From positions 1 through 26,644 of the forward strand of contig CAZMHG010000002.1 in the NCBI GenBank assembly GCA_964565975.1: a DNA stretch of 26,644 nucleotides. Direction: 5' to 3'. Within the stretch, counting starts at the first letter, position 1, and each line of letters starts with the position of its first letter. The position numbers and the translations under genes are program-made. The notes under the pieces were generated by a model that was given only the letters and a program-made list of their open reading frames with translations, was not told where the DNA came from and did not search any database. The stretch is from an uncultured Ilumatobacteraceae bacterium. GTDB taxonomy: Bacteria > Actinomycetota > Acidimicrobiia > Acidimicrobiales > Ilumatobacteraceae. Shown in pieces: positions 16,591-21,416 of this stretch.

Positions 16591-17709
16591 TCATCGGTCC
16601 TTGAGTGCAGCGATCGCACTCCTGCCCGTGAGACGACAGCTGAACCAGACCAATGCCAGGCAGGAGAGAAGGCTCAGCAGTGCGAATCGCAGGGCTGACA
16701 GCACCGCGACGCGAACAGCAAACCGCACGCTGTCTGGAGCCGACCACGCAAGCTTGGTGATGACGATGGCGACCATCAAGCTGGCGGCGACCGTCCAGAT
16801 CAACGCGAGCTCTGCGGTTCCGACTGCGCCGACCTGATGTGGCCGAAAGCCGACGACGACGTACAGGCCGCGTTCTGAGCGTCGCATCAGCAGCGACATC
16901 GCGAAGAGGACGGCGACAACCGCTGCGCCGATCAAGTAGTACAGCCGACTCGGGCGCGCTGCGAATGCGTCCTGTGGCGCCGGGATTAGATCCGAGGCTG
17001 GCAATGCCCACCCCTGCGAAATGCCTGAGGTAGCTGGAATGAGCGATCTCACTGATAGCGCAACGGAACCTCGGCTGTTTACCCGGGCAAACAGCAGGCA
17101 CGCATCCACATTCCCGTCGAGATGAACGCGGGAGATGACATTGCCCTCTAAACCGGCACCCCACGGCGAAAGATCAACGGCTCGCGCATCGACGGCGGTG
17201 TAATCGCCGCCATCACGGACGACCCATTGACGCTGTTCTCTGGGTGCCACATCAGCTCTGCTGTCAACGAAGATCGAGCGGCCCGACGCTGCGCCGAGTA
17301 GGCCGTCGAGATCACCGTCGGCCTCCCACGCCGGCAGGGACTCGCCGTTCTCTCCGAAGAGCTTGACTTCTCCGCGCCTTCTCATCCAGACGGCATGCTC
17401 GACGGCTGGAATCACGCGTAGGCTCGAGCACGTCTTCGCCGTCAGGTGCCCGGCGGGGCCGGTGCTGCTCAACACATACGTAGCGAAACCCCTGTCCACC
17501 ATCTGCGCGGTGTCCCGTACGATCCTGGTCGTCGCGTTGTACTCCACGACAAAGATCGCGAGCGCGCTCGACAGAACGATGGAGATCAGAAGTCCGGACA
17601 CCGCTGGCCGGGAACGCAGGTTCCTGCCAGCTTCAACAACGGCACTTCGTACGGACAGGCCTGCGTCGAGGGCACCATGCGTTGCTCTAGAACGCATCGA
17701 GATTTCCAT
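16591..17709 (-). CDS. MacB/FtsX-like ABC permease (372 aa)
   Basis: One N-terminal TM, a large extracytoplasmic domain and three C-terminal TMs; RRSERGLYVVVG resembles the FtsX RRxE...G motif. Start is 17709 or 17697. Confidence 0.7.
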   Translation of the reverse strand: MEISMRSRATHGALDAGLSVRSAVVEAGRNLRSRPAVSGLLISIVLSSALAIFVVEYNATTRIVRDTAQMVDRGFATYVLSSTGPAGHLTAKTCSSLRVIPAVEHAVWMRRRGEVKLFGENGESLPAWEADGDLDGLLGAASGRSIFVDSRADVAPREQRQWVVRDGGDYTAVDARAVDLSPWGAGLEGNVISRVHLDGNVDACLLFARVNSRGSVALSVRSLIPATSGISQGWALPASDLIPAPQDAFAARPSRLYYLIGAAVVAVLFAMSLLMRRSERGLYVVVGFRPHQVGAVGTAELALIWTVAASLMVAIVITKLAWSAPDSVRFAVRVAVLSALRFALLSLLSCLALVWFSCRLTGRSAIAALKDR

Positions 17710-18307
17710 CGCTGAGACGTACCCGACGACACTCCTTTGGAAGTGATTGGATGTCGTGAGTCACGATGACTACTGCCCGGCGAGCGTCGCCAGCTACCTC
17801 GGCCAGCGCACTCATCACCATGTGAGCATTGCGTTGGTCAAGATGGCTGGTCGGCTCGTCGGCGAGAATAATCGGGCGGTCCGAAGCAATCGCTCGGGCG
17901 ACGGTCATTCTCTGAAGCTCGCCTCCCGATAGCCGTCTCGCCTTCACATTTCTGAGGCTCTCAAGTCCAACCTTGGCCAGCGCCTCGGTGGATCGACGAT
18001 CTCGTTCGGCCATCGACCAGCCGTGCAGAATGCTCCCTAGCATCACGTTGTCCAGTACCTGTCTTGCTGGAAGGCAATTCAACGACTGAAGAATCCAAGC
18101 AAACGGTCTCGATGTGTCGTGCTGGACTTCGACGTACCCACTTGTCGGCAGGAGCAAACTACCAAGCAGCGCCAACAACGTCGATTTTCCTGACCCGGAC
18201 GGGCCACAGATTGCCAGCGCTTCGCCAGACCCAACGTGAAGGTTGATCCCGCGAAGTATCGCCTTCCCGCCTTCGAACGCGAAGGAGAGATCGTGAGTGG
18301 TCAGCAC
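17687..18307 (-). CDS. ABC ATP-binding protein, LolD/MacB type (206 aa)
   Basis: GPSGSGKST, LSGGELQR, ILADEPT, VTHD; GTG start overlaps the upstream stop. Confidence 0.92.
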   Translation of the reverse strand: MLTTHDLSFAFEGGKAILRGINLHVGSGEALAICGPSGSGKSTLLALLGSLLLPTSGYVEVQHDTSRPFAWILQSLNCLPARQVLDNVMLGSILHGWSMAERDRRSTEALAKVGLESLRNVKARRLSGGELQRMTVARAIASDRPIILADEPTSHLDQRNAHMVMSALAEVAGDARRAVVIVTHDIQSLPKECRRVRLSDGNLDAF

Positions 18308-19335
18308 GTCGATGGTGGCGTGAGAGAAACGATCTCGCCTGCTCGCAGATTGCCTTCGACGATCGTCCCGTCGAGGCCAGAACTGGCCAGCGACACAGAG
18401 ATCGGATGCTCGCGATTGCCGTCGAGCACGTAGACGCAGAGTCGGTCGGGTCCAATCGATACCAGCGCCGAGGGTGGAATCAGAAAACCTTTGAGGGGCT
18501 CGGCAAATTTCGTGAGCCCACTCACCGTGGTCGGCAATGGGGCTCCATCTGCAACGGTCTCACGAATCATGGCTTCGAGCTTGTCGAGGTTCCCGAGCGA
18601 TCCCGCCGAACTCACCACAAACTGGGTTGCGTCGTTATCGACATTGAAGAGTTGCGCGCTGGTCGACCGCAACGGAGTGCGGAGGGTGGCACTGGCCAGC
18701 CGGGGCTGGACGGACCCAACAAGTACATCGCTTCCTGCGCGAACGCGCGCCCCGGTGGTGACGGACACGGAATCCAAGGTGAGCGCAGACTCACTCCAGA
18801 CCACATCCCCCGGATCGACGGCGGTCTGGGGATCCCTACCGCGGTCGGCGTTGAAGCGTGCGAGGAGATTCGCCCGTGTGGCTTCGCCACCCCCCTGTAC
18901 ACGCAGCACGAATGCGAAGAACTCGTCGGCATCTGTGCCCGTGGTAGCCGCTGACACCGGTCGCCACAACGGCTGTCGCGCGCAGTAGAGCGTGACCGGC
19001 AGCCCATTCAGAAACAGAAGCGTGCCCCCACACTGGACTTGCCGTGCGGGCGCAACATTGACTGACGTGACCACGCCGTCTGCGTTTGGCACGACCACAA
19101 CAGTCCGCCCATCTGACCAACGTAGATCGACTACTGCTGGAGCAGATAGATCAGTTGAGCCTTCTACGACCGCAGCAGTCGACTGGCCGGCTGGCTGCGT
19201 CCCGGAGTCCGCTGGGTATCGAGTCATGGGCAGTGCCAGCGCCACCAGCGCCACCGCCCCGGCCAGCAGTATGACCAATGCGCCGACCCGGCCGACATGT
19301 GCGATCGTCGCGTTGCGCCGTGTCACCTGCACCAC
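18301..19335 (-). CDS. Membrane-fusion/periplasmic-adaptor-like protein with a degenerate peptidoglycan-binding-like segment (344 aa)
   Basis: N-terminal TM anchor; lipoyl-like DGVVTSVNVAPARQVQCGGTLL; PLWRPVSAATTGTD segment; C-terminal LIPPSALV and VEGNLRAGEIV typical of adaptor proteins. Confidence 0.7.
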   Translation of the reverse strand: MVQVTRRNATIAHVGRVGALVILLAGAVALVALALPMTRYPADSGTQPAGQSTAAVVEGSTDLSAPAVVDLRWSDGRTVVVVPNADGVVTSVNVAPARQVQCGGTLLFLNGLPVTLYCARQPLWRPVSAATTGTDADEFFAFVLRVQGGGEATRANLLARFNADRGRDPQTAVDPGDVVWSESALTLDSVSVTTGARVRAGSDVLVGSVQPRLASATLRTPLRSTSAQLFNVDNDATQFVVSSAGSLGNLDKLEAMIRETVADGAPLPTTVSGLTKFAEPLKGFLIPPSALVSIGPDRLCVYVLDGNREHPISVSLASSGLDGTIVEGNLRAGEIVSLTPPSTC

Positions 19336-19341
19336 AGTGGT

Positions 19342-19881
19342 CTAGCACTCCCCTGCGCTCTGCAGTTCGAGGGCTTTGGCCAAGAGCTTTCCGTAGATGT
19401 CACTCCCTGGGACGATCGCAGCGGGCAGAGCGACGCTGTTCTTCGTCAGACAAGGGCGAGCGGTTGCGTCGAAGAGCTCGGTCTGCTGTCTGGCGCTGGC
19501 GGCAACAAATGTTGGGTCGGAGGTTTGCCAGGCAAGTTCGATATACGAGAAGTACCGTTGGTAGCACGCATTCAACGGATCGCTCGCCGGCGCGCCTGGA
19601 GCGTCGAGCGCTCGGTTGACCTCGTAGACGATCAGTCCGGTCGAGGCGTCGACCGATCGAGTTTCGACGGCTTTCGCCTGTGATTCGTTTGCACACGTTC
19701 GGAAGCTTTGAAACGCCGCTTGGTACTCGCGGGTCGACACCAATCCATCGGCGAACGCCGACCGCTGTTCAGCCGGCAACCGCTCCACAGGAATCGGGAT
19801 CAAGGTTTTTGATTCCTTGACCCCCGATCCGCCGCACGAAATAAGAGCGAGTCCGACTGCTATCAGCGCTCTGCATCTCAA
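19342..19881 (-). CDS. Lipoprotein of unknown function (179 aa)
   Basis: TTG start overlapping the upstream TGA (TTGA); lipobox LISC; four further Cys (RTC, NAC, RPC, GEC). Confidence 0.75.
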   Translation of the reverse strand: MRCRALIAVGLALISCGGSGVKESKTLIPIPVERLPAEQRSAFADGLVSTREYQAAFQSFRTCANESQAKAVETRSVDASTGLIVYEVNRALDAPGAPASDPLNACYQRYFSYIELAWQTSDPTFVAASARQQTELFDATARPCLTKNSVALPAAIVPGSDIYGKLLAKALELQSAGEC

Positions 19882-19955
19882 CTGATCTGGTATCCGCCGT
19901 TCGAATATTGATACGCGCAGTATGAACTCGGCGGGCCCGTGAAAGCACGCTTCAT
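19878..19955 (-). CDS. 25-aa peptide MKRAFTGPPSSYCAYQYSNGGYQIS (not in the ORF track)
   Basis: AGGGAGGAG Shine-Dalgarno with GGAGG (19964-19968) 8 nt before ATG 19955; its TGA overlaps the TTG start of the lipoprotein; promoter directly upstream. Confidence 0.7.
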   Translation of the reverse strand: MKRAFTGPPSSYCAYQYSNGGYQIS

Positions 19956-19990
19956 CAGCTACTCCTCCCTAATAGGATAAGCATGTCCGC

Positions 19991-20020
19991 ACGATAACAA
20001 GGCCGACGTTCAGCCGTCAA
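19991..20020 (-). promoter_or_regulatory. Sigma70-type promoter for the peptide-lipoprotein-adaptor-ABC operon
   Basis: TTGACG (20020-20015), 18-nt spacer, extended -10 TGn-TATCGT (19996-19991). Confidence 0.7.
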
Positions 20021-20120
20021 TGGCCAGGAGTTCCCCCGCCCAGGTCACCACATCACCCTTCAGCCTCGGTCGGTGTCGCCGCCGCGGCGAGCACGGCCGG
20101 CGTGTCACGATGCGCGGTGT

Positions 20121-20258
20121 TCAGGTGGACAGCATCTGGACGAGCTCGTCCGTGAGCCGCGCAATCATCACCAGACCTGGATCGTGGTCCGGGTTCACTT
20201 CGGCAACGGTCAATGCGGCGACCTTGCCGCTGCTCAGGAAGACCTGCATCGCTCGCAT
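20121..20258 (-). pseudogene. 3' remnant (45 codons) of an arginase/ureohydrolase-family gene
   Basis: Translates as MRAMQVFLSSGKVAALTVAEVNPDHDPGLVMIARLTDELVQMLST*; EVNPDHD resembles the arginase C-terminal E(V/F)NPxxD motif; the catalytic N-terminal part is absent. Confidence 0.6.
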
Positions 20259-20267
20259 ACTGAACCC

Positions 20268-20507
20268 GTGGCCAAGGCGATCTCGGTGCGTTTGGATGAC
20301 GAGGCGGAGCGGGCATTGCGGCTCCTGGAATCGACCGGCCTGAGCCAGTCGGAAGCGATCAGGTCATCGCTGCTCGCCTCCGCCGATCGCACGCGCCGCC
20401 GCAAGCAGTTGGCCGCCGAGGTTGCTGCGCTCGAGGCCGACGCGGACGACCGGAACGAGATGCTCGAAGTGGCCGCGTTGATGGAGTCGCTGCGTGCAGC
20501 GGGGTGA
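20268..20507 (+). CDS. Ribbon-helix-helix (CopG-like) antitoxin (79 aa)
   Basis: MAKAISVRLDDEAERALRLL...SQSEAIR RHH pattern; CATACT -10 (20256-20261) 6 nt before GTG; overlaps the toxin start by 14 nt. Confidence 0.8.
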   Translation: MAKAISVRLDDEAERALRLLESTGLSQSEAIRSSLLASADRTRRRKQLAAEVAALEADADDRNEMLEVAALMESLRAAG

Positions 20508-20810
20508 CGTCTACCGGCTCAAGGTTCCCAAGGGCATCGGCCACGAGCAGCAACGTGAGCGGTGCGGCGTCGTCGTCCAGTCCGACGTGATGCTGTCGCG
20601 CTCCGTCGTGATCGTGGCCCCGACCTCCCGGAGCGCCAGGCCTGCATCGTTCCGGCCAGAGGTCGACGTCGCCGGCAGCACCACGCGGGTCCTCGTCGAG
20701 CAGCTCGGCGCTGTGAACGCGCAACGCGTGGGCCGTCGCGTCGGCAGCCTCACAGCCAAGAGATGTGGTCGGTCGACGAAGCCCTCGTGGTTGTTCTCGG
20801 ACTCGATTGA
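20494..20810 (+). pseudogene. mazF: PemK/MazF-family toxin with a frameshift near 20757
   Basis: MQRGDVY..., GHEQ, VVVQSD, VAPTS and VLVEQL motifs; the expected C-terminus (EMWSVDEALVVVLGLD*) continues in another frame, consistent with one missing base. Confidence 0.75.
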
Positions 20811-20834
20811 CGCACGCGGATCTGCCGCTCCGCG

Positions 20835-21416
20835 CTACCAACGGTCAGTCGGGTCGCTCGTCGCTCGACGAATCTCGATCGTCCGCCCAGTCGCACCGTC
20901 GATGATCGCGTCTGATCGCTCACGGGTTGGGTCGCGTCGATAGTGCTCATCCTCCGCTTCCATCCAACCCTCCCAGCCGTCGAGCGCGTCCTCGCCATCT
21001 CGTTCCACCGCGCGCTCCAGGCGTAGCTCACGGGGGGTCTCGATCCAGATGATGTAGCTGAGGTACCGAGACCACTCGCTTCGGCCCGAGGACACCCCTT
21101 CGATGATGACGATCGGAGCCGGCTCCAACGTGTGCCATTCGGCCAGGGACTCCGTTGGCCAGTCGTAGCGCTGGTAGAGCGCCGGCCTTCCTTCAGTGAG
21201 CGGCACGATGACCTGGTCGAGCAGACGAGGCCACCAGTCGATCGGGTTGTCGGCCGACGCGAAGTCGTCGGTGTGGACGATCGGAGCGCCACCGGCGGCG
21301 ACTGAGAGCTGAGCGGCAAGCGTCGACTTCCCAGACCCCCCAGGGCCGTCGACAGCGACCAAGCGGACAGGCCCCGGCCGCTCGCGGATCGCCTTCACGA
21401 TGTCCGCGAGCGTCAT
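20835..21416 (-). CDS. Uridine-kinase-like P-loop kinase (about 193 aa)
   Basis: LVAVDGPGGSGKST, VHTDDF, YQRYDW, IIEGVSS, WIETPRELRLERAVERDG. Alternative start at 21434. Confidence 0.75.
   Translation of the reverse strand: MTLADIVKAIRERPGPVRLVAVDGPGGSGKSTLAAQLSVAAGGAPIVHTDDFASADNPIDWWPRLLDQVIVPLTEGRPALYQRYDWPTESLAEWHTLEPAPIVIIEGVSSGRSEWSRYLSYIIWIETPRELRLERAVERDGEDALDGWEGWMEAEDEHYRRDPTRERSDAIIDGATGRTIEIRRATSDPTDRW

Follow-up and report, generated by a model that had tools for sequence, protein, structure and literature searches.

The window analyzed here, i.e., the whole 26,644 nt stretch, belongs to the genome of an uncultured Ilumatobacteraceae bacterium (744 contigs, 71% complete). On its minus strand lies a 25-codon open frame preceded by a promoter-like site and a Shine-Dalgarno sequence, and followed by four closely packed genes. 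The features of the locus are as follows.

19991-20020, minus strand: promoter-like site, comprising TTGACG (20020-20015), an 18-nt spacer and TGnTATCGT (-10 element at 19996-19991)
19964-19968, minus strand: Shine-Dalgarno sequence GGAGG, with an 8-nt spacer to the ATG at 19955
ATG 19955-19953 to TGA 19880-19878, minus strand: 25-codon frame, MKRAFTGPPSSYCAYQYSNGGYQIS, containing four Tyr and one Cys
19938-19955, minus strand: codons 1-6 of the frame (MKRAFT), the probable start of an original signal peptide
19881-19937, minus strand: codons 7-25 of the frame (GPPSSYCAYQYSNGGYQIS), which share homology with the last 19-21 residues of a family of secreted proteins (family B, below)
19878-19880, minus strand: TGA stop codon of the frame, overlapping the lipoprotein TTG at 19881-19879 (TTGA)
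19342-19881, minus strand: lipoprotein, 179 aa, with signal peptide MRCRALIAVGLALISC, lipobox LISC and four conserved Cys beyond the lipobox
18301-19335, minus strand: membrane-anchored adaptor-like protein, 344 aa, with a weak C-terminal match to TIGR01730 (RND_mfp)
17687-18307, minus strand: ABC ATPase, 206 aa, of the LolD/MacB/Lcn972-ABC type (PF00005 at 9e-27)
16591-17709, minus strand: permease, 372 aa, of the FtsX/MacB type by homology to the permease of a related operon (L036)

The initial annotation of this DNA, made from the letters alone, had described the promoter, the GGAGG with its 8-nt spacer, the ATG at 19955, the 25-codon frame and the TGA/TTG overlap, together with a lipoprotein TTG that lacks a good Shine-Dalgarno sequence, and all of these are borne out by the sequence. 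The putative promoter matches 9 of 12 positions in a promoter scan and was the sole sigma-70-like site in the 1.6 kb scanned (19300-20900), for which shuffled sequences give an expectation of 0.1; we infer that the TTGACG-18-TATCGT site functions as a promoter. From the upstream stop codon (20121) to the lipoprotein start there are 240 nt, which is too short for an intact gene. Since the ATG at 19876 lies in another frame, only the TTG at 19881 can serve as the lipoprotein start. The lipoprotein record (P0001) is 153 aa long, just 85% of the 179-aa frame, indicating that it was called from a later start, and the annotated start belongs at TTG 19881. The sequence of the stop/start junction in the window, TTGAGATG (19874-19881, minus strand), recurs at a junction in a related operon (L047b), where the ATG is the lipoprotein start.

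The lipoprotein, adaptor, ATPase, and permease genes are full length and align end to end with their homologs. The lipoprotein has no Pfam or NCBIfam match and its family is unannotated. The 344-aa adaptor-like protein scored 16.9 bits against TIGR01730, far below the cutoff of 94.9, and aligns along its entire length, at 33% identity, with the adaptor of the related operon L041, for which the precomputed Pfam note is YknX_C (weak). For the ATPase, the top NCBIfam similarities were LolD, L_ocin_972_ABC, and FtsE, all scoring under the equivalog cutoffs, and membership in the LolD/MacB group is therefore assigned at group level only. For the window permease, Pfam gave no match. Over its full length it shows 32% identity (E 4e-46) with the permease of L036, which in turn scores 31.9 bits against a Pfam FtsX cutoff of 25.5. 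The operon had been described previously as encoding no modifying enzyme, and indeed none of its genes has a Pfam or NCBIfam match to such an enzyme. Among the four proteins, there was no match to RiPP modifying enzymes or leader-cleaving transporters, and the ATPase carries no peptidase domain.

A two-lipoprotein profile, run with HMMER on a set of 1.84 billion representative proteins, returned 325 lipoprotein clusters (E ≤0.001), and DNA was examined around the best of these matches and around genome hits. Nine distinct operons (L002, L003, L034/35, L036, L037/38, L040/41, L044, L045/46, and L047/48) share the lipoprotein, adaptor, ABC ATPase, and FtsX-type permease, plus a gene for a secreted protein of 90-106 aa. 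In every locus with readable upstream DNA, this small secreted-protein gene either adjoins the lipoprotein gene or heads the operon, and the encoded proteins all combine a Sec signal peptide with four to six cysteines. None of the nine related operons has a conserved small ORF at that place. The comparison thereby exposes a cassette that occurs mainly in Actinomycetota. A word-based protein search with the window lipoprotein returned only the window's own protein, the same kind of search with the L035 small protein found nothing, a related-locus search with a narrow alignment (A5) gave no confirmed locus in genome contigs or metagenome contigs, and PADLOC reported nothing specific.

The small secreted proteins split into two unannotated families, here named A and B, whose detectable similarity is limited to the signal peptide (hhalign probability 25%). 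Family A proteins have NCGxC or a comparable motif at the C-terminus and are represented in L037 (two tandem copies), L038 (one copy), L002 (frameshifted), L003 (distant), and L045/46 (A-like). Family B proteins, about 101-106 aa in size, have the core QRA..TC..YYGxW, four conserved cysteines, and the tail C....SN..[WY]Q[LI]R. Members were identified in L034/35, L036 (divergently oriented), L040/41, L044, and L047/48 (two copies), as well as from the protein search (P0156 and P0157). They start with MKRF, MKRL, MKYF, MRRK, MRFR, or MKKS, and in the related operons their Shine-Dalgarno sequences are AAGGAG or GGAGGA, at a distance similar to that in the window. Neither family gave a convincing Pfam or NCBIfam match, and all clusters retrieved by protein-atlas look-ups were Actinomycetota clusters labeled "hypothetical protein". 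The one weak lead, to DUF6355 (score 0.77), was not borne out by Pfam. An AlphaFold model of family B based on eight sequences is all-beta (pLDDT 72), and a model based on five sequences was unusable (pLDDT 43). Comparison of the family B model with PDB folds gave no significant match, the best being the fungal effector SIX8 (E 0.11).

In L002 (2040-2328, minus strand; one-contig genome G032), a one-base shift within a G-run (gaggggggtcgg) interrupts the family A gene. Read through, it encodes 95 aa, ends in NCGNC, and has a stop codon that overlaps the lipoprotein start. The split represents either a sequencing error or a second case of cargo-gene decay.

Two tandem pairs of a family B gene and a lipoprotein gene precede a single adaptor and ABC set in L047 (467-2613). 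In a tree of thirteen lipoproteins, moreover, those linked to family A and those linked to family B separate with a single change, on a branch with support of 80/93 and with the split present in 82% of bootstrap trees. The tandem pairs in L047, and the way in which lipoprotein clades track the small-protein family, suggest that each small secreted protein has its own partner lipoprotein. A matched pattern of small proteins and lipoprotein clades of this kind is typical of toxin-immunity pairs.

The window lipoprotein sits within the B-linked group of this tree (nearest neighbor L035, 46% identity), which independently predicts a family B partner for it. The 25-codon frame is found where such a partner would be expected by synteny, i.e., in a lipoprotein/adaptor/ABC/FtsX operon where, like family B genes, it immediately precedes the gene for a B-clade lipoprotein. 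Residues 7-25 of the frame align with the family B C-terminus gaplessly and with stop codons in register: GPPSSYCAYQYSNGGYQIS aligns with APSSMNCSVQTTSNTYQRR (P0157), the last 13 residues align with CGGTISNTGMQLR (L044), and the tail as a whole fits the family B pattern AP..C....SN..[WY]Q[LI]x at the stop codon. This similarity was evaluated with a BLOSUM-averaged, stop-anchored profile built from family members only, against which all stop-to-stop frames of the window's genome were scored. The window frame ranked first of 64,128 genome frames with the 19-aa tail and first of 69,493 with the 13-aa tail, and none of 100,000 shuffles of the window tail reached its score. The stop-anchored test was designed after the similarity had been noticed; a repeat using only the later-fetched L044 and L047a placed the window frame second of 69,493. 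Local HMM scores for the frame were weak (4.4-7.4 bits; rank 371 and then 53 of 69,493), as expected from a match of only 18 residues, with positions 87-104 of the 105 in the eight-member HMM aligning to ORF residues 8-25.

At the other end of the frame, MKRAF bears a short resemblance to the family B N-termini MKRF and MKRL, and the start region of the window is, judging from this sequence, probably the original family B start. Between the two ends, what characterizes the family is missing. The window peptide has no Sec signal (there is no hydrophobic stretch after MKRAF and no Ala-x-Ala type cleavage site), keeps one of the four conserved cysteines (C13, the last), and lacks the QRA..TC..YYGxW core. 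The initial annotation had raised, among its options, a deletion relic in which an MKR-like N-terminus is fused to a C-terminal tail, and had linked this option to relatives having a secreted gene of 100-150 aa in the same place. The 90-106 aa genes of the nine operons, along with the tail homology, lend support to that option. No pre-deletion allele or close relative was found in the collections, in which the best lipoprotein match is 46% identical, and a search for family B in 400 genomes of the phylum gave one doubtful match with internal stops. No intact family B gene was found elsewhere in the window's own genome, at its 71% completeness.

Taken together, we consider it highly probable that the 25-codon frame is the remnant of an internally deleted family B gene. 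The parent gene would have encoded a secreted protein of ~101-106 aa, with a Sec signal peptide, four conserved cysteines, and an all-beta structure, and would have stood directly before its partner lipoprotein. An in-frame internal deletion of ~80 codons (~240 bp) would then have brought the initial 5-6 codons together with the final 19. The end points suggested by the sequence comparison would put the junction at about codons 5-7, with the original promoter, Shine-Dalgarno sequence, and ATG apparently kept. Such an event would have taken out the hydrophobic center of the signal peptide along with its cleavage site, as well as the QRA..TC..YYGxW core and all but one of the four conserved cysteines; with these gone, the predicted product of the remnant cannot be secreted or folded like its parent. 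In the AlphaFold family B model, the retained segment corresponds to the last two strands, which, going by that model, could not fold alone. The lipoprotein, adaptor, ATPase, and permease would thus have been left intact behind a lost, bacteriocin-like cargo gene, and the locus is most likely an orphan self-protection or expulsion cassette that was horizontally acquired.

Several characteristics of the locus bear on its origin. The GC content of the cassette is 61%, compared with 70% for the genome, its GC3 is 62-70%, compared with 90% in the neighboring cation-exchanger gene, and it lies close to a tRNA-Sec. The window lipoprotein was also not found in the two same-genus genomes searched. Because of the low GC and GC3, the nearby tRNA-Sec, and the result for these two genomes, the cassette is very probably horizontally acquired DNA. 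In the related locus L037 (670-3458), integrase and Transposase_mut genes are situated directly upstream of the family A cassette, an arrangement that is consistent with a mobile cassette.

The proposed protective role draws on gene context and on analogy with YknWXYZ and with loci in which an ABC system follows a Sec-dependent bacteriocin gene. In Bacillus subtilis, the MacB-type pump YknWXYZ, which includes an adaptor, shields cells that make the SDP toxin from that toxin (PMC4887032; reviewed in PMC5985334). The cassette resembles YknWXYZ in its putative adaptor (YknX-like), LolD/MacB-type ATPase, predicted four-helix FtsX-type permease, and monoderm setting, and also in its proposed role, protection against a secreted antagonistic protein. 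It differs in having a disulfide-type lipoprotein in place of YknW, and in having a cargo gene within the operon, which in the window is reduced to 25 codons. The window adaptor and permease are only weakly similar to curated models.

The lactococcin 972 locus provides a second comparison. There, a Sec-dependent bacteriocin gene (PF09683) is followed by genes for a membrane protein and an ABC ATPase (TIGR03608). The gene order is alike, running from a small, Sec-secreted, beta-rich protein to an ABC system, and the window ATPase scores 131.8 bits against TIGR03608, which is under the family cutoff of 254.85. Unlike the lactococcin 972 bacteriocin, members of families A and B did not match PF09683, or TIGR01653, at E up to 1-10. 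Based on these analogies, the intact cassette most likely comprises a secreted antagonistic protein and its protection system, and we infer that the cargo was an antagonistic protein against which the pump and lipoprotein protect. Orphan immunity loci that persist after decay of a bacteriocin or toxin gene are a general phenomenon in bacteriocin and polymorphic-toxin systems. The window is similar to these in having intact protection genes behind a truncated or deleted toxin gene on an acquired island; it differs in that both families are undescribed and that the toxin and immunity roles are here assigned from gene context only.

The remnant may also have a present role. It could serve as a working upstream frame, in which ribosomes end at the TGA and re-initiate at the overlapping TTG of the lipoprotein, a possibility to which we would give somewhat less than an even chance on the sequence features. 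The window has the TTGA overlap, no Shine-Dalgarno sequence before the TTG, and a strong one before the remnant, and the deletion preserved the reading frame. Similarly tight junctions are seen in relatives: L035 has CTGA, with no ATG, GTG, or TTG in the lipoprotein frame between the overlap and the lipobox; L047 has TAATG (L047a) and a 1-nt gap (L047b); and in L002 the small gene and the lipoprotein gene overlap. Against this, one in three random deletions is in frame, and the in-frame outcome hence proves little. Nor is coupling universal, with gaps of 24-63 nt between the two genes in L041, L044, and L037. Coupled translation is compatible with descent from a deleted family B gene, and would mean that only in-frame cargo deletions keep the protection operon expressed. 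A stronger version, which we regard as speculative and rather less likely, is that the 25-codon frame is a decayed cargo gene turned to a new use in coupling, the lipoprotein being translated only by ribosomes terminating there. Selection for resistance without toxin production would in that case have favored the in-frame deletion. If true, such reuse would constitute a documented route from a toxin gene to an obligatory upstream ORF in an orphan immunity cassette, within an undescribed actinobacterial bacteriocin-like system.

It is improbable that the short frame is an assembly artifact, i.e., a collapsed or chimeric join in an organism that really carries an intact family B gene. Although the fragmented and incomplete state of the genome, as well as the apparent assembly defect that splits the family A gene in the L002 G-run, would be in keeping with such an error, the join is in frame with clean signals on both sides, there is no repeat or N-run at the junction, and ~240 bp of unique sequence are rarely deleted by short-read assemblers.

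Least probable of all, and largely refuted by the sequence comparison, is that the 25-aa peptide is itself functional, be it an exported pheromone, a bacteriocin or RiPP-like substrate (the initial annotation had suggested a pheromone, an antimicrobial peptide, or a regulatory leader), or a leader peptide controlling an attenuator: the strong translation signals and the position at the head of an exporter-like operon would suit such a role, but the related operons have genes of ~100 aa at this place and no conserved small ORF, the peptide is explained as the two ends of a family B gene with one of four cysteines, neither a double-glycine nor a Sec leader is present, the operon lacks a modifying enzyme, and the leader RNA has no Rfam match at E ≤1 and a fold no more stable than shuffled sequences (z = +1.27).

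With the frame read as what is left of a family B gene, the proper annotation is a gene remnant rather than a new peptide, and the window would be a case in which the cargo was lost and the protection genes were retained. The remnant itself is ordinary. The undescribed cassette is more interesting, with its two unrelated, unannotated families of small secreted Cys-rich beta proteins, each accompanied by a matching lipoprotein clade and a MacB-type pump, and is best studied in intact relatives (e.g., L041 and L047).

Three further observations concern the surroundings of the remnant and the lipoprotein. A short open frame upstream (20121-20330, minus strand), ending in ...VAEVNPDHDPGLVMIARLTDELVQMLST, was compared with Pfam (E ≤0.1) and with PDB sequences (E ≤1) and matched neither. 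The window and the L047 promoter region have in common a 14-nt motif that spans the -35 box (ATTGACGGCTSAAC; p ~0.02 in one of five comparisons). Written as ATTGACGGCT(G/C)AAC, the motif occupies positions 20008-20021 (minus strand) in the window and 372-385 in L047, upstream of the family B gene in L047/L048; it may be due to chance or be a shared operator, and is a hint, not evidence. Lastly, in L005 (G183:C17, a same-family genome), a lipoprotein-type domain forms the C-terminus of a frame of ~500 aa with an N-terminal membrane helix, and P0023 and P0069 (~500 aa each) likewise carry the domain C-terminally, indicating that the lipoprotein-type domain is also used in larger membrane proteins.
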